DNA of 64,000 nucleotides from Eledone cirrhosa. Lineage: Eukaryota. Below the pieces are notes generated by a model. It saw only the letters and a list, made by a program, of their open reading frames with translations, was not told the DNA's origin and ran no database searches. Positions 5,451 through 57,254 of this stretch are shown here, piece by piece. Within the stretch, counting starts at the first letter, position 1. Every line of letters starts with the position of its first letter. The translations under genes were made by a program, and so were the position numbers. The DNA is taken from contig OZ024753.1 in the NCBI GenBank assembly GCA_964016885.1, positions 40,796,001-40,860,000 of the forward strand, read 5' to 3'.

Positions 5451-5742
5451 ATATATTGCCGCGTCTTCCTTAAATTGACTTTCTCCACAGCAATTTAAAC
5501 AGAAAAATATAATTTCCAGAAAATAAAATTAAATTGAATTCCAAGGTGATACAAGGTGCATTGGAGATGATGCCGGAAAATGTAATTTATTCGAATAATA
5601 TATGATGCATATATACAGTGCACATTTACATACAACATACGCAATTGCATACACACAAACATGCATAAGTTAAAACGTACATATATAGATACATACAATT
5701 ATGCCTGCTTGCTAAGATGTGCACACAACTACAAACATTGGT

Positions 5743-5830
<88 letters not shown>

Positions 5831-5865
5831 AAAGAACACAAGAGCGTCTACAACATATATATATA

Positions 5866-6246
5866 TGTCTAGGGCGAGTAACATTCCTGAGATCCATGGA
5901 CGAGTTCTCTCCAGCGGTCTCTGTCCCTCATTATCGCTGCCATGTCCTGCGTCTCCAAGAGACCAGTGTCTGTACTTTAACCTTGGTCTTCCTCTTCCAG
6001 TGTGTCCATGTATGGGCTCCCACAGGAGCACTGAGTGCAATGTCAACTCTGGATGTCGGTGAGCATGTCCAGCTAACCTCAGTCTCCTCTGTGTCACTTT
6101 TGAGCTGACTTTTGGGAGCCTCCCGTACAGCTCTGAGTTCTTCATCCTCAGTGTATACTGATTAATGTTCAGAGCCATCCTCAGCATTCTCGTGTAGCAC
6201 CCATCCACCATCTGAGTGAGTTTCTTGGTCAGTGTCCAAGTCTCAG
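5866..6246 (-). mobile_element. RTE-like LINE, 3' coding fragment
   Basis: Translation VDGCYTRMLRMALNI..LYGRLPKVSSKVTQRRLRLAGHAHRH..GRGRPR matches the post-RT C-terminal motif of RTE-type elements. Confidence 0.85.
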
Positions 6247-7475
6247 TATTATATGTATTATATGATCCACATATATATATATTGGTTAGTATATTTGTTG
6301 TAAAATATAGATATGTATGTATATATAATTTTTATACATATCATTTTTTATATCTACCTATCTCTCTTACATTCGGTTTATATACATATATATGCGTGAT
6401 TGTCTATTTGTGAGTTTGTGTTTTTGTCTGTGAGTCTGTTTACGAGTGTGTTTATGTGTTGTGTGTGTGTGGGAATATGGATGCACACTCATCTCCGAGT
6501 AAGTCTGTTTGAGACTATTTAAGAGAACCGTATTCGACAGTTGGTCTTTAAGCCGACCAGACACCTTCATGTATTATAGATAGAAGACTTTACCAAGAAA
6601 GTTATATATGTTCACGTCCATATGCTGTCTAGTATACTCATATATATATATATCTGAGTCTTGTTAATCCTCCAATTGATTTGCTGACGTGAACTACATG
6701 TTACGCTGTTTGTAATAGTGAACTTACTACAGTCAAACTTGTGCCTGGCCTTATAAATATTTTGATGACTAATCCCGCTATCTTTAGAACGCTTTACACT
6801 ACTACAAATACCACAATTTAACATATGTTTCTCAAAATTCCTTCAGGAACAGTATCTAACTCAAAATATTCCTGTGAGATGGATACTTACAGTTACTTCA
6901 CCAAAGAGCAACTATTTTCACCATTGTTTGCGATGTAAATATTTCTTTCGCAATTGTCTTCAGGTATTTGCATATCAAATGATTTCAAAGAGGACTTTTG
7001 CACAATATTTATACCGTAGCTTTGGCTAAAGTTAGGGACTCTTTCAACCTCTGTTTCGGGATCATCTGAGCTGTCAGGGCTGTTCTGACCAGTTTCTTGT
7101 ACTATGTTGATTGCACTAGGCTGAGCTCTTCTGGCCGGGATGGTTGGCTTTGCCTGTTCCTTGGACTCATTGCGATAATCTGCTTTGGCCCGAATAGTGG
7201 AGCTGGATAAGATCTTCTGGCCTTACTGGGCTGGATAATTCCAGTAAACCAGTTCCACCCATCCGTCCATGATCGCAGGTTCAAGCCTTGCCGACATAAT
7301 CAAGACTGAAGATCAGGCCGAAATGACCGGAATGTCCTGTCAGGTTTCAGCTAGCCTGCGAGACCTGGTTGATGAGAGCTGCACTGTCTGGCGTGGCTGA
7401 ACTAGGAGGGGAGATTTACAGGTGAAAAACCCATGGTTATATATATATATATATAATATATATACGTATGTATAA

Positions 7476-18554: not shown

Positions 18555-18644
<90 letters not shown>

Positions 18645-18680
18645 ATTAACAAATGGAAACTATATTTATAAAACCATATT

Positions 18681-18745
18681 TATTTCATTATACATATTTC
18701 AAGGACACCAAGTTAAATTATGGTGTGCTTTCATCAGATAAAATA
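18681..18745 (-). ncRNA. Minimal type I hammerhead ribozyme (family P3, inverted copy)
   Basis: Reverse complement of 18846-18910. Confidence 0.78.
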
Positions 18746-18845
18746 TAATATAGATCAGTTTTATAAATAAATATTGACATACCCTTAAAGAATGCAACCA
18801 TTACTGTTGGAAGCTCCCGGATATTTATAAAACTGATCTATATTA

Positions 18846-18910
18846 TATTTTATCTGATGAAAGCACACCATAATTTAACTTGGTGTCCTTGAAATATGTA
18901 TAATGAAATA
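18846..18910 (+). ncRNA. Minimal type I hammerhead ribozyme (family P3)
   Basis: TATTTTAT-CTGATGA-AAGCACACCA..TGGTGTCCTT-GAAA-TATGTA-TA-ATGAAATA; 8-bp stem I. Confidence 0.8.
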
Positions 18911-19088
18911 AATATGGTTTTATAAATAAAGTTTCCATTTGTTAATATCGTATTTTTACTCCAATTATTTGTTGTGTGCTTTATATCAGTTATAAAAATA
19001 TTTGCTTGTTGTATCCCAACAATTTAAATAGAACTTTTACATATATATATATATATATATGTATGTATATATATGTATATATATATAT

Positions 19089-36051: not shown

Positions 36052-36163
36052 ATTCCAGTTCTTCAGTGAAATAACAACCCAACCAGGAACTGGGTATATC
36101 AGAGTATTGACAAAATTATACACCTCAACAACATATGTACTTGTCTATACCACACTAATTCGG

Positions 36164-36218
36164 ACTGCCTGAAGAGGTCACAGCCAAAGATGGCTGTCAC
36201 CGAAATATATATAGCAGT
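36164..36218 (+). ncRNA. Minimal type I hammerhead ribozyme (family P6)
   Basis: ACTGC-CTGAAGA-GGT.ACAGCCA AAGA TGGCTGT.ACC-GAAA-TATATA-TA-GCAGT, then AATAAA. Confidence 0.85.
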
Positions 36219-36642
36219 AATAAACGAAGCTAAATTTTAAACATTTGACTTTTTATTTTACTTTATTTTATATATATATATATCTATATTACATCACGGT
36301 TGACAATACGAAATGACCACTTCTATCCAGTGGTGAACCAGCAAACCTAAATATATATATACATATGTATATGTATTGTTAATGTACTCTTCCTTTCTCA
36401 AAACTCATTTCTCAATGCCTCTTTAATTATTGGACTATTCTCTTGTTTTATCTGTTGCATGTATTCCACTCTGTGCCTTTAATTGGAATTGGAATTTGTG
36501 TACAAGTATTGTACAATTCTCTTAAAATATGTCACATCCATTCGACCCTGTAAATACGAAACTGTTGCTCACAACAACAATATATATGTATCTATATTAT
36601 TGTTCAGTTGGATAGGAGGTTAATTATATGTACACACATTGA

Positions 36643-47249: not shown

Positions 47250-48005
47250 AGTACATGTATGTATAGTTATACTTATATACTTATACTCTCATATTTGTAG
47301 GTGTATATATAAAAATATATATACGCACACTTGCACACACTTAGACAGACACACAGACACCGACACACAAGCACACGTAGTCAAAAGTAGTAAACACATT
47401 AATATATACTAAACCGTTAAAAGAAACCAATAGAATTGTCCTTGCTTGTGTTGTTATGGTCCAACAATGAATTAAGAAGTGTTTGCACTGAAATATACTG
47501 TTTTAACAAGAAAAACTCTCTTGTATATTTACCAGGATTTTTTTCAACACGCTGACGTGTATATGTATATTTGTGTGCCTGTGTGTATGTGTATGTGGAC
47601 ACATTTATGTGTATGAGTGTATAAATATAAACTCGTAAACAAAGACACACTTACAAAGATACACACTCACAAACACACATTCACATTTATGTGTATGAGT
47701 GTATAAATATAAACTCGTAAACAAAGACACACTTACAAAGATACACACTCACAAACACACATTCACACAGACACACACATACATTCACACACATATCGTA
47801 GTTAATGAAACGCCACTGTTTTGCTATAGTTTATTCACCATCCCCTTCCTTTCTGTTACACATATACACATTCACACAAACAGACACACACATACATACA
47901 CACACATTGTATGGCGGATGGACGGGAGTCACACAAATTTATATATAGCAGGGTGGCCAGCGCTCTACCGATAATGCCAATGAGATATATAGGTAGGTAG
48001 GTAGG

Positions 48006-48084
<79 letters not shown>

Positions 48085-48115
48085 CTATATAGGTGGGTAG
48101 ATAGATAGATAGATA

Positions 48116-48764
48116 AATTTCTTTATTAGCCACAAGAGAACAAAAGAAGAGGACAAATACAAATGGGGAGTTTACATACAGGTACATTAAAATAAAACTA
48201 TAAATAAAATAACAAATAACAATAGAAATCCCCAATAGGGGGGAGGCGTTACACAGGGGTTGTACACCCCCCCCCCCCCCCAAAAAAAAATGTACAACCC
48301 TCATCTCCAGGAGCACCAAGAGTGAGTACTCCCTTCCTCTCTTCCTCTTTTTCCTCAAACCTACAGGCTTATATAGAGAGAAGGTCCAAACCTCTCGGGC
48401 CATCTTTGCCACATTCACCCATCTTTTATAAAATTTGCTGGGGTACAGCACCTCTCTCTCCATCCTGATTCTTCTTCCAAAATGATATTTGAAAAAACGA
48501 ATCGGTTGCTCGTCGTAGATAGATAGATATATTTCTTTATTTACCATAAAGGCATAAAAAGAAGGGACAAATACAAAGGGGGAGTTTACATAAAACCGAG
48601 TCGTCATAGATAGATAGATATGTTTCTTTTATTTGCCACCAGGGCATCAAAAGTGGGACAAGTACAATGGGGGGGGAGTTTACAAAACAAGGCGTCCTCA
48701 ATAAGGAGGAGGCAATAACAATATATAAAAATAAAATAAAATATAACAAAAAATAAAATTTGTC

Positions 48765-51510: not shown

Positions 51511-52527
51511 TGATTTCATTTATTGGCCTCAAGGGCCGACATATAGGGGACAATACAAAAGACTGGGACAGTGGGGTTTTACAGAAAAATCGAGTAAACA
51601 ATATGAATAACAATAACAAAGTAACAATAACAAAGTAACAATAAAGTAACAATAAAATTACAACAAGAAAAAATTCCCCAATGGGGGGATGACCACCTAG
51701 GGTTCGCTCAGGTACCCCACCAGTTCTGAACGACCAGGCGCTTCGAGAGCACCCTGGAAGGGCACCCCTCTCCTCTTCAAATGTACCTACCTACAGCCGC
51801 ATGACCAGAGTAGACCCACTCACACGGGCCATTCTCTCCACATTCACCTACCTTTCATCAAATGTACTGGGGGGCAGCACTTCTCTCTCCACCCTCACCT
51901 TCCTTTCCAAGTGAAACTTGAAAAAGTTGATGAGGGATTGGCCGAAGAGAAAAGTGTCTGTCTTCAGTCCTTTCAACCTCGTCCACCATACAACCTCTTT
52001 CGCCACCACTAATCCTCTATAGAACTCGAGAGTGGAAGTTCCACTGACCGCATTGCCAGCCTGGTAGAGGGCAGTAGGTGCCTGGCAACATTCCAGATGC
52101 CAGTCACCTAGTCTCGGTCTCTTCTTGAAACAGGACTGCAACTCAGTCAAAGAAACGAGCTGCGGAAAGGTCCGTCTGACAAACGGCGACCACACCTGTT
52201 CACCGTTTAGGCAGAATATCTGGAGATGCCGCAGCCTCAGCGCGTGCCTACGCATCATTAACCACGGCATGCACAGCCCTCCACGTAGAGGGTGCTGGCA
52301 GCAGATGGACCGCCTCACCAGCGGAACTTGACCCCTCCACAAGAATTTGAAGAGGAGCCGCTCCAAGATGGCGAGGCGCGAACGGGGGCAAGGGACGACA
52401 GTCAGACGGTATTAGATGACGGACGCGATGTACGCGTTCGCCACCTCCGCCCGACCTTTCAGTGATATCTTCATCCCAGCCCATTTCTGAGTGAGACTGA
52501 CTACCCTGCCCGTCACCTCGTCCCAAT
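51511..52527 (-). mobile_element. Tx1/L1-clade LINE ORF2 3' fragment, internally deleted
   Basis: WAGMKISLKGRAEVANAYIASVI..LLFKFLWRGQVPLVRRSICCQHPLRGGLCMP is the typical L1/Tx1 post-RT region; joined to the C-terminus and 3' UTR. Confidence 0.88.
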
Positions 52528-52838: not shown

Positions 52839-53018
52839 TTAAAAGATAGAGAATATCTTGCAGGAAGAAAAGAGTGCCTCAAACCTTCGGGAAAGGATTT
52901 GCAAGGAATAGATTGTGATGAGTAAATTGGGGTGGCGGTGATGTGGATAGTATGGGGGGTATTTTAGGGGTGTACAGTGTGTGACTGGGTGGTGGGGGAG
53001 TCTTTTCTTCTCCTCATA

Positions 53019-53050
<32 letters not shown>

Positions 53051-53194
53051 AGTTGTTGTTGTTGTTGGTATTGCTGTTCTTCTTGTTGCTGTTGTTGTTG
53101 ATGACGCTGTTGCACTTGTCGTTGTTGTTGCTGCTGTTGTTGTTGTTGTTGCTATTGCTGTTGTTGTTGTTGTTGTTGTTGTTGCTGCTGCTGC

Positions 53195-53254
<60 letters not shown>

Positions 53255-53353
53255 CAGTGATAATATTGATGGAAACGATAGTTTTGGGTAATTTTGCTAT
53301 TGTGTTTTTTAATGTGTCGTTGTTATTGTTGTTGTCGTTGTTGTTGTTGGTGC

Positions 53354-53395
<42 letters not shown>

Positions 53396-53587
53396 CGTCG
53401 TCGTCAACGTTGTTGTGCTATGGCTGTTATTGTTGTTGTTGTTGTCAACATCGTTTTGCTGTGGTTGTTATTGTATCATTTTTGCTGAGACTAACGTATG
53501 CTTCTCTCTTCTAATGGGCGCGGGACAATAGCCAAAATGGCTACCGTTGAGATGCTGACAAATATTCGACAAAACATATAAAGCCCA

Positions 53588-53670
53588 TCATTATCATCAT
53601 CATCATTATCATCATCATCATCATCATCATCATCATAATCATCATCATCATCATTTAACGTCCGTTTTCC
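53588..53670 (-). mobile_element. RTE-type 3' tail remnant with (GAT)n
   Basis: Minus strand GGAAAACGGACGTTAAATGATGATGAT. Confidence 0.55.
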
Positions 53671-53943
53671 CTACTTGTCAAATGTGTGCTATTACATCAA
53701 ACTCTAATTCACAATTTCAAGAACAAGCAATAATGAGAAATATATTAACGGAAGCGGGACACAGGATATCCAGTATACCACGCACTCCCACACACACCAT
53801 CACTATCATCCCATCCCCAACGTCATCACCATCATCCTCTTTGCATCATCATCCTCTCCACCACCATCGCTATTATCACTACAAACCGCCACCACAACTA
53901 CCACGGGGCCGACTTCAGTTGTTGAATAGACAAAACACAAAGC

Positions 53944-53976
<33 letters not shown>

Positions 53977-54316
53977 AACTAATGCAAATGGCAACAATGT
54001 GGAATGTAAAATTAGAGGAGATTCATGCAGGCGGAAACGAAGAGGCAACCTATGAAAGGTCACGTGACTGGTCTCATTTAGAGCCTGAAATTTGTAGTAT
54101 TTTCTTCGACGGAAAAATTGTTACATTAAAAACGTCAAAGAAAAGATGAGGCGAGATTGATATAAAGGGTGTTGTAGTGAGCGGGGAGGGAGGGGGGTGA
54201 TGTTGGAGGGAGGGTCACGGAAGGGAGGGCGAAGGATTGAAGTAGGAAATGAGGATGAGAGAGATGCAAAGGGAGAGATAGATGGGTAGATGGATAGATA
54301 GATAGATAGATAGATG

Positions 54317-54382
<66 letters not shown>

Positions 54383-54579
54383 CAGATAGATACATAGATA
54401 GATAGATAGATAAATGCATTCACGTAAATAGACAGAGACTGAGAGCGCATGTCTATATATATATCTATATATCTATATATATATATGACCGTTATATCGC
54501 GTGACTATCTCCCCCTCCGCCTTTTGGGATTCTTTCTCACGTCGTGTAGACGCGTTCTTGAGACTAGTAAAATGAGGTA

Positions 54580-54667
54580 TCCTCTTGATAAGTTGGCAGA
54601 CCTCGCAAGGACTCTATATCTTTGATATATTGTTTTTGTTTATGCCACGAAACTACGTAGTCGAGGA
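54580..54667 (+). ncRNA. Type I hammerhead, U3-A8 core variant (copy 1)
   Basis: TCCTC-TTGATAA-long stem II-GAAA-CTACGTAG-TC-GAGGA; predicted cleavage after 54662. Confidence 0.78.
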
Positions 54668-55170
54668 ATTTAGGAACAGTTTAGGTATGATACATTTTAT
54701 TACTAATTATATCTAAATGTTTCTTCTCTCTTCATAATGTATTTTTAACTCTGATACTGGTTCAGTCTGGTTCAAACTGAATTGGTCTGTCCCAGTCATT
54801 CATTGAGCAACATCGGTGAAGTTGGCACCCTTAACTCACAGTTGGGTGCGGATGCATTCATGTATATATGTGTGTGTCCGCATGTATCTGTGTGTTTTTA
54901 AATATATTAATAACTCCCTCTGGTCGAGCAATCTTTGAAGTGTGGGGACAACGGGAAAGCTTCCATTACTCATACTTCTCGCCTTCTTCACTACCTCTTC
55001 TACGGCCTCGATATGAATACCCCCTCCGCCTCCGTGGTATTTTCTTCGTGGTTATAAGAGGCTTAGCTCTGTTTCTCGACCGTTATATCGCGTGACTATC
55101 TCCCCCTCCGCCTTTTGGGATTCTTTCTCACGTCGTGTAGACGCGTTCTTGAGACTAGTAAAATGAGGTA

Positions 55171-55258
55171 TCCTCTTGATAAGTTGGCAGACCTCGCAAG
55201 GACTCTATATCTTTGATATATTGTTTTTGTTTATGCCACGAAACTACGTAGTCGAGGA
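55171..55258 (+). ncRNA. Type I hammerhead, U3-A8 core variant (copy 2)
   Basis: Identical to 54580-54667; predicted cleavage after 55253. Confidence 0.78.
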
Positions 55259-55489
55259 ATTTAGGAACAGTTTAGGTATGATACATTTTATTACTAATTA
55301 TATCTAAATGTTTCTTCTCTCTTCATAATGTATTTTTAACTCTGATACTGGTTCAGTCTGGTTCAAACTGAATTGGTCTGTCCCAGTCATTCATTGAGCA
55401 ACATCGGTGAAGTTGGCACCCTTAACTCACAGTTGGGTGCGGATGCATTCATGTATATATGTGTGTGTCCGCATGTATCTGTGTGTTTT

Positions 55490-55547
<58 letters not shown>

Positions 55548-55731
55548 TTAAAATAACAGATTAAAATTTAAGCAAAGAATCGCTGCTTTCTAAAGAGCTT
55601 CAGAAGATCCCGTCAAGGGTGAAAGCACCGATTCTTTGCTTAAACAGCCTTTCTATGTTCAATATTATATACCCTGCTTTGTATTGAGTACCTTACTTAT
55701 TATAGTTACCCCCGATTGAACTCGGGATAAA

Positions 55732-55785
<54 letters not shown>

Positions 55786-55793
<8 letters not shown>

Positions 55794-56070
55794 AAGAATC
55801 AAAGAACTGTTCAAAACATTATTGTGCTTACAGCTGTTTCCTCCAAACCGAGGTTTGGATTCTTCGGAGCAATTTATTAATGCATGGACAGTTATATGAC
55901 CTCCTTTTCAGCCGAGAAACATACCGATACATATTCAAACATTGATACATATTCAAACATTGTGGGTCAACATTCATTACAGAATTTAGAGTGGCAGTAC
56001 ACACTTCGAGATTACATTTATATTAAGAGGTACAATCAAAAATCAAAAATACAGGTTAAAATACAACATG
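55786..56070 (-). mobile_element. Family P7 element with hammerhead at 55825-55871
   Basis: Reverse complement of 42476-42760. Confidence 0.8.
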
Positions 56071-56100
56071 TATTTACATAACCATAAATAGTATAACTAA

Positions 56101-56271
<171 letters not shown>

Positions 56272-56382
56272 TATGTACACGTACATACATATATGTATAC
56301 AGATTTAAGTAACAGCCGTACTAAGAGTGGGAAATGAAATTTTGTTTCATTTTTTTCCGTTTATATATATATATATATATAA

Positions 56383-56555
56383 ATCGGTAGAGGATCGGAC
56401 GCCATGCTTTGACGCATAGAGTTACGGCCCTTGCCATTCTGAGTTCAAATCCCGCCAAGGTTAACTTTGCCTTTCATCCTTACGGGGTCGATAAAATAAA
56501 GTACCAGTAATGTACTGCGTAATTGCTGGCCTTGTGTCAATAGTAGAAACAATTA
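56383..56555 (+). mobile_element. Meta-domain-type SINE
   Basis: Match to the family. Confidence 0.88.
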
Positions 56556-56719
56556 TCAATGTTAATAGTGTTAATAAAATTAATATTATTATTATCACAC
56601 GACGAGAACTTTAACATTATCATCATCTATGTTATATCTAGTTTGTGTTTATATAGCTATATACGTTAAATATATTCTCTATCATGATCTCAATATGAAC
56701 TTCACTATAGCTAGTACAG

Positions 56720-56905
56720 GGCGGTGGATTGGCAGTATCGGTAGAGGGTCGGACGCCATGCTTTCCAGCATAGTTACGTCTCTTTACGATCTGAGTTCAA
56801 ATCCCGCCGAGGTTGACTTTGCCTTTTATCCTTACGGGGTCGATAAAATAAAGTACCAGTAATGTACTGGATAATTGCTGGCCCTGTGCCAAAAGTAGAA
56901 ACAAT
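56720..56905 (+). mobile_element. Full-length Meta-domain-type SINE with 14-bp TSD
   Basis: TATAGCTAGTACAG at 56706-56719 and 56906-56919. Confidence 0.92.
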
Positions 56906-57254
56906 TATAGCTAGTACAGCTTGAACATTTATAGAATTGTTTCTATATGTGTAGTTTATTGTTTACCACTGTCATTGTTACTAGTTTTTTGTCAATGTTC
57001 CAACGTTTCTTAAAAGAATATAGTTTATTTTTAACTCTGACAGCTATCATTTATTAAAACGGCTATATTTGTTAAATCAACTTAATTATTCAGAAGAGAT
57101 CTTTTTGTAAAAAATATATGAACAGGTAAACAGAAATTGAGAAGAAGCAAACACGCAAATGTATGCTTACATATATACGTGTGTGTATATATGTATATAT
57201 ATAATATATATATATATATATATTATATCTATACACACACACACATATATATAT

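Follow-up and report, generated by a model that had tools for sequence, protein, structure and literature searches.

Tandem and inverted insertions of a Penelope-type hammerhead retrozyme family in Eledone cirrhosa point to circular RNA templates and two start sites

A stretch of 64,000 nucleotides of Eledone cirrhosa DNA (contig OZ024753.1, positions 40,796,001 to 40,860,000, hereafter the window) contains two direct repeats within a run of TA, each with a hammerhead ribozyme motif, and the question is what kind of element this is and from which template it was copied. Based on the results of this study, the locus is a 5'-truncated copy, 1.7 units long, from a real retrozyme family. The kind is known, the ribozyme is a variant and the tail is unusually long; the value of the family is the mechanistic record held across its copies. 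The repeats described in the first-pass annotation (54487-54907 and 55078-55498) show no difference over their length of exactly 421 bp, at an offset of 591, while the 170 bp between them, which had been called unique, are in fact the remainder of a 591-nt unit. The right edge that had been given for the element (55498) is an end defined by the family, whereas the left one (54487) is a mere 5' truncation point. The absence of a recognisable protein was borne out, with no credible ORF among the 62 stop-to-stop frames of at least 40 aa in 53000-57000. The head-to-tail joint was also found in contigs from three of four public runs, and therefore the duplication is not an assembly artefact. Features of the locus are listed in Table 1. 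Elsewhere in the window, LINE-type ORF fragments were judged by eye at 47,942-48,628 and 51,851-52,411 (-) and at 5,732-6,331 (-).

Table 1. Features of the insertion and its target in the window (u, position in the repeat unit)
Feature	Position	Strand	Remark
Whole insertion	54487..55498	+	Single arm, 1.71 units, 5'-truncated at unit position 1, 3' end at B
One 591-nt repeat unit (u1-u591)	54487..55077	+	At least 188 family matches among the best 40 of 543 candidates
Left part of (TA)n target	54454..54486	.	
Right part of (TA)n target	55499..55547	.	
Hammerhead 1, type I, U3-A8	54580..54667	+	Predicted cut between 54662 and 54663, after C
Hammerhead 2, identical to hammerhead 1	55171..55258	+	Predicted cut between 55253 and 55254, after C
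Predicted 591-nt monomer RNA, probably ligated into a circle	54663..55253	+	Circular fold
Predicted hairpin before site A	54672..54724	+	Prediction only
Start site A	54736..54752	+	Family 3' end u256 = 54742; second copy 55333
Predicted long hairpin just before site B, hiding an unused TATATAT	54833..54897	+	
Start site B	54901..54917	+	Family 3' end u421 = 54907

As annotated, the two repeats contain U3-A8 hammerheads 591 nt apart, which are of type I. Each consists of stem I (TCCTC/GAGGA), the core TTGATAA, a 57-nt stem II, GAAA and a stem III formed by the 10-nt palindrome ACTACGTAGT. The conserved core with the 3-8 pair, G10.1-C11.1 and GAAA..UH is present; the core columns were invariant in 17 of 17 aligned variants, which had been selected on the core pattern, and U3 occurred in 101 of the 101 cores that carry A8. 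In the helices 95.5% of cells were paired and two of 26 pairs were changed on both sides, with 13 of 500 shuffles as high, and the covariation is weak. Rfam returned no hammerhead among 52 matches at E<=10. The search for the C3-G8 form of the family, with 0 hits, was uninformative because the spacer of the pattern (20-50 nt) was shorter than the family's 57 nt. Six candidate hammerheads were found on both strands of the window, i.e., the family's two, three of the C3-G8 type elsewhere and a weak one. At 36,162-36,270 there is a solo minimal C3-G8 hammerhead followed by a TA run, which resembles sequence in locus L106.

The U3-A8 combination had been presented as a compensatory variant; it is present here, but was already known from the Cercyon elements of Schistosoma (PMC4209133). 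According to the accessible parts of that source, Cercyon hammerheads also share the U3-A8 covariation, a 5-bp helix I, a bulge near the base of helix II and a palindromic helix III that favours dimers, and the Schistosoma U3-A8 ribozymes showed low activity. However, the Cercyon motifs are mostly single and heterogeneous, whereas here 7,250 near-identical cores belong to a young tandem family. In agreement with the idea that the palindromic stem III would allow dimers, cofolding of two copies favoured an intermolecular stem III (-59.7 kcal/mol versus twice -23.1 for the monomers). The circular fold of the 591-nt monomer was predicted at -172.4 kcal/mol, with z=-5.6 relative to 60 shuffles, compared with -128.8 for the minus strand, and a predicted pairing of 54663-54667 with 54729-54733, 8 kcal/mol below the active fold, can block the ribozyme. 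Self-cleavage of the transcript is a prediction from folding and conservation.

The ribozyme core pattern had 7,250 matches in the 3.0-Gb host assembly and the reversed pattern, used as a control, had 0. The first 100 core matches represent 50 loci across 53.5 Mb of C1, which suggests a family of about 3,600 loci. A search with the unit gave at least 188 matches at 98-100% identity, many in head-to-tail arrays, among the best 40 of 543 candidates. Three samples were studied: sample 1 was the window plus 39 top-hit loci, sample 2 the 50 consecutive C1 loci from the first 100 core matches, and sample 3 consisted of 30 stretches of a subfamily 72-80% identical, five of which repeat an already sampled locus. 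Samples 1 and 2 were chosen for a full unit or an intact core, and their arm-length proportions are biased upward. The units are non-coding and tandem with one type I hammerhead each (128 full monomers), 107 of 127 monomers are 591 nt long, and subfamilies down to 72% identity retain the same design. Dispersal by retrotransposition is seen in the variable 5' ends, the fixed 3' ends, the strand-biased variants and the spread of 50 loci over 53.5 Mb. The earlier description of a young, non-autonomous, retrozyme-like element with a 591-nt monomer running from cleavage to cleavage fits this evidence and is supported at the sequence level. Its length, which had been called longer than typical, does exceed the 220-390 bp of the monomers of coral, mussel and axolotl (PMC7229834), but lies within the range of 51-972 bp given for retrozymes in the available part of bioRxiv 10.64898/2026.07.22.740005. 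In the public runs X1-X20, words of the unit occurred under 17 organism labels, 11 runs having half or more of them; no RNA run was among the public runs listed, which bears neither way on expression.

The family resembles animal non-LTR retrozymes (PMC7229834; bioRxiv 10.64898/2026.07.22.740005), as far as these are described in the sections consulted, in its non-coding tandem units with a type I hammerhead each, low GC, dispersed short arrays and co-occurrence with Penelope-like elements, to which retrozymes have been linked (bioRxiv 10.64898/2026.07.22.740005). It differs from them in the Penelope-type U3-A8 core and the 57-nt stem II. The first-pass annotation had offered as its alternative a pseudo-LTR tandem left over from a 5'-truncated coding Penelope element, and Penelope traits are indeed seen in this family, namely the hammerhead architecture, the inverted arms, the tail and the (TA)n target. 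However, the junction at 54907/54908 is common to head-to-tail arrays genome-wide, with the 591-nt period repeated up to 7.5 times without an ORF, and an RT frame was reached from none of the 90 loci of samples 1 and 2 nor from the 30 older-subfamily stretches. The contrary case named in that annotation, a junction private to this locus with other copies attached to a coding element, therefore fails, and the pseudo-LTR reading, largely refuted for the window locus by the ORF-free 591-nt arrays, is hardly credible.

The ends of the insertions give a second kind of evidence. Insertions of the family sit in (TA)n with scattered 5' ends, and their 3' ends fall at u256 (site A) or u421 (site B), 165 nt apart in the unit. 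Many loci consist of two inverted arms joined 5'-to-5'. In samples 1 and 2 together, 52 of 55 two-armed insertions combined one A arm with one B arm, none being A+A or B+B and three having an odd end, and this exclusivity holds despite the symmetric TA target. Sample 1 contributed 24 of 25 two-armed loci, besides seven single B arms, including the window, and eight single A arms (the 3' end of L066 maps to A); sample 2 contributed 28 of 30, a count that takes a duplicated locus twice and includes one older-subfamily insertion, besides 22 single-armed loci. In sample 3, picked by a query ending at B, about 15 A+B loci were recognised by eye, with one odd locus and one B+B; the latter, L205 (the same as L214), is the sole B+B locus and belongs to the older subfamily. 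In the window, site A is not an end and the second copy of site B is the element's right end at 55498; this copy would be a case in which only the B-primed arm survived. The single A arm of L045 has a 14-nt inverted remnant of a B end in its left flank, and some single-armed loci may therefore hide a vestigial second arm. Sites A and B share a motif found nowhere else in the unit, which is looser in old subfamilies, and each is preceded by a predicted hairpin. Priming by the best TA microhomology was rejected, as the TA-rich positions u139, u220 and u377 are unused and A offers just three matching bases.

Among 25 arm joints, 13 overlapped by 1-4 bases, seven were blunt and five had inserted bases. 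In twin priming of LINE-1, two cDNAs are made from one RNA and meet in a 5'-to-5' microhomology joint. The two cDNAs and the 5'-to-5' joint are alike here, whereas in this family the two priming sites, both internal, do not vary in position, and an arm may span several units. Fold-back synthesis of the second arm was discarded as a general route because either arm can be the longer one and the 5' ends mostly differ; symmetric arm joints were found in two loci, L151 and L159. The 5' truncation points cluster at about u190, about u352 and u515-590, some at the 3' foot of predicted hairpins, and these clusters could possibly be pause sites of the reverse transcriptase. A two-ended design in another family was observed at 18,620-19,040 of the window, where a small two-armed inverted element has minimal C3-G8 hammerheads on opposite strands (18854 on the plus strand and about 18737 on the minus strand) and arms 98.5% identical over 132 nt that end at two points in (TA)n.

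Endonuclease-bearing Penelope-like elements, in the parts of PMC8557442 and PMC11167929 consulted, also show 5' truncation, an inverted arm, (TA)n targeting, a tail at only one end and, a short way downstream of the hammerhead, two RT start sites. Of these features, PMC8557442 describes the inverted arms, the TA targeting and a tail that is often found at a single end. In PMC11167929 a Penelope-like protein, predicted to be a dimer, was shown to cut both strands and to extend them, starting at two internal sites that delimit the tail. The two 3' ends defining a tail, the inverted 5'-truncated arm and the microsatellite target are all seen in the present family. Unlike autonomous Penelope-like elements, it has no ORF carrying RT and a GIY-YIG endonuclease, and its tail equivalent is 165 nt against 30-40 (PMC8557442, PMC11167929). 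Moreover, the anole protein in vitro made no difference between the strands in its choice of start site (PMC11167929), whereas the two arms here almost always start at different sites. Chlamys elements such as MRC1 are likewise non-autonomous with multicopy head-to-tail insertions, but most Chlamys elements, in the accessible text of PMC8557442, have no canonical hammerhead and are similar to an autonomous partner already known; no such partner was found here. Long RT + GIY-YIG ORFs do exist in the genome. None of the loci compared shared its ends with the unit; these were 40 GIY-YIG loci (40 of the 150 hits scored among 10,595 candidates), four other U3-A8 loci and 30 loci belonging to a second RT family. 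No match was found in 70 PLE-bearing stretches or in the four U3-A8 loci.

In a coding, Neptune-like family (loci L093 and L096), copies stop at two different points 3' of the ORF, downstream of a C3-G8 hammerhead-like motif, which suggests that this family has a tail of its own. A young and abundant RT family (L166 and L160-L189; 834-aa frame, 45,807 candidates, no Pfam hit) has no sequence in common with the unit and is possibly Naiad- or Hydra-like. More distant U3-A8 hammerhead families are represented by L220-L223 (62 pattern hits versus 26 control hits); L220 is about 70% like the unit, and L221 and L222 resemble each other. The hammerhead of L221 was considered as part of a nearby Penelope-type ORF and rejected, since it lies beyond a TA run in a separate insertion.

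The arm lengths bear on the template. With a linear self-cleaved monomer as template, an arm started at A could be no longer than 80 nt and one started at B no longer than 245 nt, yet 128 of 141 typed arms exceed these limits, reaching 4,433 bp or 7.5 units, in samples that both favour long arms. No 5' end was found at the cleavage site (u174-180) among 147, and no indel among 255 family cleavage junctions. Based on the long arms, the absence of cleavage-site 5' ends and the seamless junctions, the template was a circle or an uncleaved multimer. The units of a locus are of one haplotype: among 128 full monomers, two units differed on average by 0.74 when they came from the same locus, by 0.65 when they lay in opposite arms and by 6.0 when they came from different loci, and opposite arms agreed at 266 of 266 polymorphic-site comparisons in 39 loci, 32 of them involving minor alleles. 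Single-unit variants occurred at 6.8e-4 per base. In 67 young loci only one variant was shared by a subset of the units in its locus. Ten variants, including two A>G changes, occurred in a single arm, in each case one that covers the site once. Closed contigs of 621 and 620 nt were found in runs X1 and X7, which are of unrecorded kind; they were rejected as proof of circular RNA because low-coverage tandem DNA yields the same shape.

Growth or homogenisation of the arrays after insertion, by unequal crossing-over or gene conversion, or their collapse by the assembler, would also make the units of a locus alike. It is the standard route for satellites, unequal crossing-over has been discussed for retrozymes (bioRxiv 10.64898/2026.07.22.740005, in the part available), and one segmental duplicate, L123, was seen in sample 2. 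However, the homogeneity extends over the inverted arms of very young loci, single-unit variants survive and therefore the units were not collapsed by the assembler, and neither the A+B rule nor the strand-biased A>G variants described below would be explained, so that this possibility is very unlikely.

Two kinds of variants behaved differently in the 67 young loci. Of the 38 rare variants that are fixed within a locus, 17 are A>G on the ribozyme strand; among single-unit variants the share is 4 of 73 (p=1.4e-6). A>G changes on the transcribed strand are the mark of A-to-I editing. In L154, six A>G changes lie within 116 nt in all seven units of both arms, and the pair at u289/290 occurs at exactly seven places in the assembly, which are the L154 units, four in one arm and three in the other. 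Since editing acts per molecule, the fixed edits must go back to a single monomer, from which the units of both arms were then multiplied; it is possible that the assembly lacks a parent locus of L154, in which case this bottleneck would shift back one generation. The strand bias of A>G relies mainly on two loci, L152 and L154. Without them A>G versus T>C was 6:5 and not significant (p=0.21), but A>G was still enriched over single-unit variants (p=0.009). The A>G sites were not enriched in predicted paired regions (p=0.23), and the preference for a 5' U alone was not significant (p=0.21); the 5' neighbour was U or A at 18 of 20 sites (p=0.003, in a test chosen afterwards). Single-unit variants had biases of their own, with G>A exceeding C>T (18 versus 6, p=0.006) and T>C exceeding A>G (17 versus 4, p=0.05), as might be expected from wobble errors of a reverse transcriptase on separate passes.

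These patterns help to weigh the remaining templates. If no circle is involved, the template could be a linear multimer that is transcribed from an array already in the genome, stays uncleaved and is primed at both A and B. Such a template fits the seamless junctions and the lack of cleavage-site 5' ends equally well, and unprocessed RNA was the dominant substrate of the anole element in vitro (PMC11167929, as far as available). However, it would be edited unit by unit, whereas the changes in all seven L154 units need a one-unit bottleneck and hardly any variant is shared by only part of a locus; arrays could also only shrink with each cycle, yet the diverged subfamilies keep the design, and we regard it as unlikely. 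A single linear monomer re-used by precise end-to-end template jumping, or turned into an amplified DNA circle, would also yield a one-unit bottleneck and one haplotype per locus. Against it stand the indel-free junctions and the absence of 5' ends at the cleavage site, together with the RNA-strand bias of the single-unit variants, which suggests that each pass was a fresh reverse transcription and not DNA copying, and its probability appears a little lower still.

The explanation we consider probable is that the family is a non-autonomous retrozyme of the Penelope type, and that its edited circular RNA serves as a template on which reverse transcription starts at two sites and goes round repeatedly. 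Array transcripts would be cut into monomers by hammerheads acting as dimers, and the monomers would be ligated into circles, sometimes A-to-I edited, with a predicted fold that blocks the ribozyme by 8 kcal/mol. A Penelope-like RT/GIY-YIG protein, probably a dimer, would cut both strands of a TA repeat, and each of the two DNA ends would prime a cDNA on the same circle, the first at A and the second at B. Each cDNA may run several times round the circle, as in rolling-circle copying, before the two cDNA ends are joined through short microhomology. In this scheme hammerhead cleavage, expression, the circle and the helper enzyme are putative and deduced from genomic sequence; in vitro, hammerhead cleavage was dispensable for insertion (PMC11167929, in the sections available). 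The stricter statement, that each insertion records one covalently closed RNA circle, primed by a Penelope-like protein dimer at two non-equivalent fixed sites and copied by rolling circle, is given slightly better than an even chance.

In the available text of PMC8557442, the formation of tandem, inverted and tailed Penelope-like insertions is described as undefined. Retrozyme circles have been found in coral, mussel and axolotl, tandem cDNA from circles was proposed and editing was raised as a possibility (PMC7229834), and ribozyme-made RNA circles as a template for reverse transcription appear in the parts of PMC4209133 and PMC7229834 consulted as a proposal only. Within the sources covered by our literature search, which were seen in part, neither the A+B rule nor the fixation of edits across the units of a locus was found described, and older papers on Penelope structure may anticipate the arm asymmetry.

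Since this short and young family has thousands of copies, each locus can serve as a single-molecule record. The data are genome-level support for the circle model, previously proposed for such elements and not shown, and the rule of one A arm and one B arm is a sharp constraint on any mechanism. The unit also offers a small, defined RNA suited to in vitro tests. If the stricter statement is true, it would account for the way in which Penelope-like elements at large come to be tandem, inverted and tailed, and A-to-I edits would be written back into the germline genome and drive the sequence change of the family. The results thus suggest a route by which RNA edits may become inherited DNA changes in a mobile element.
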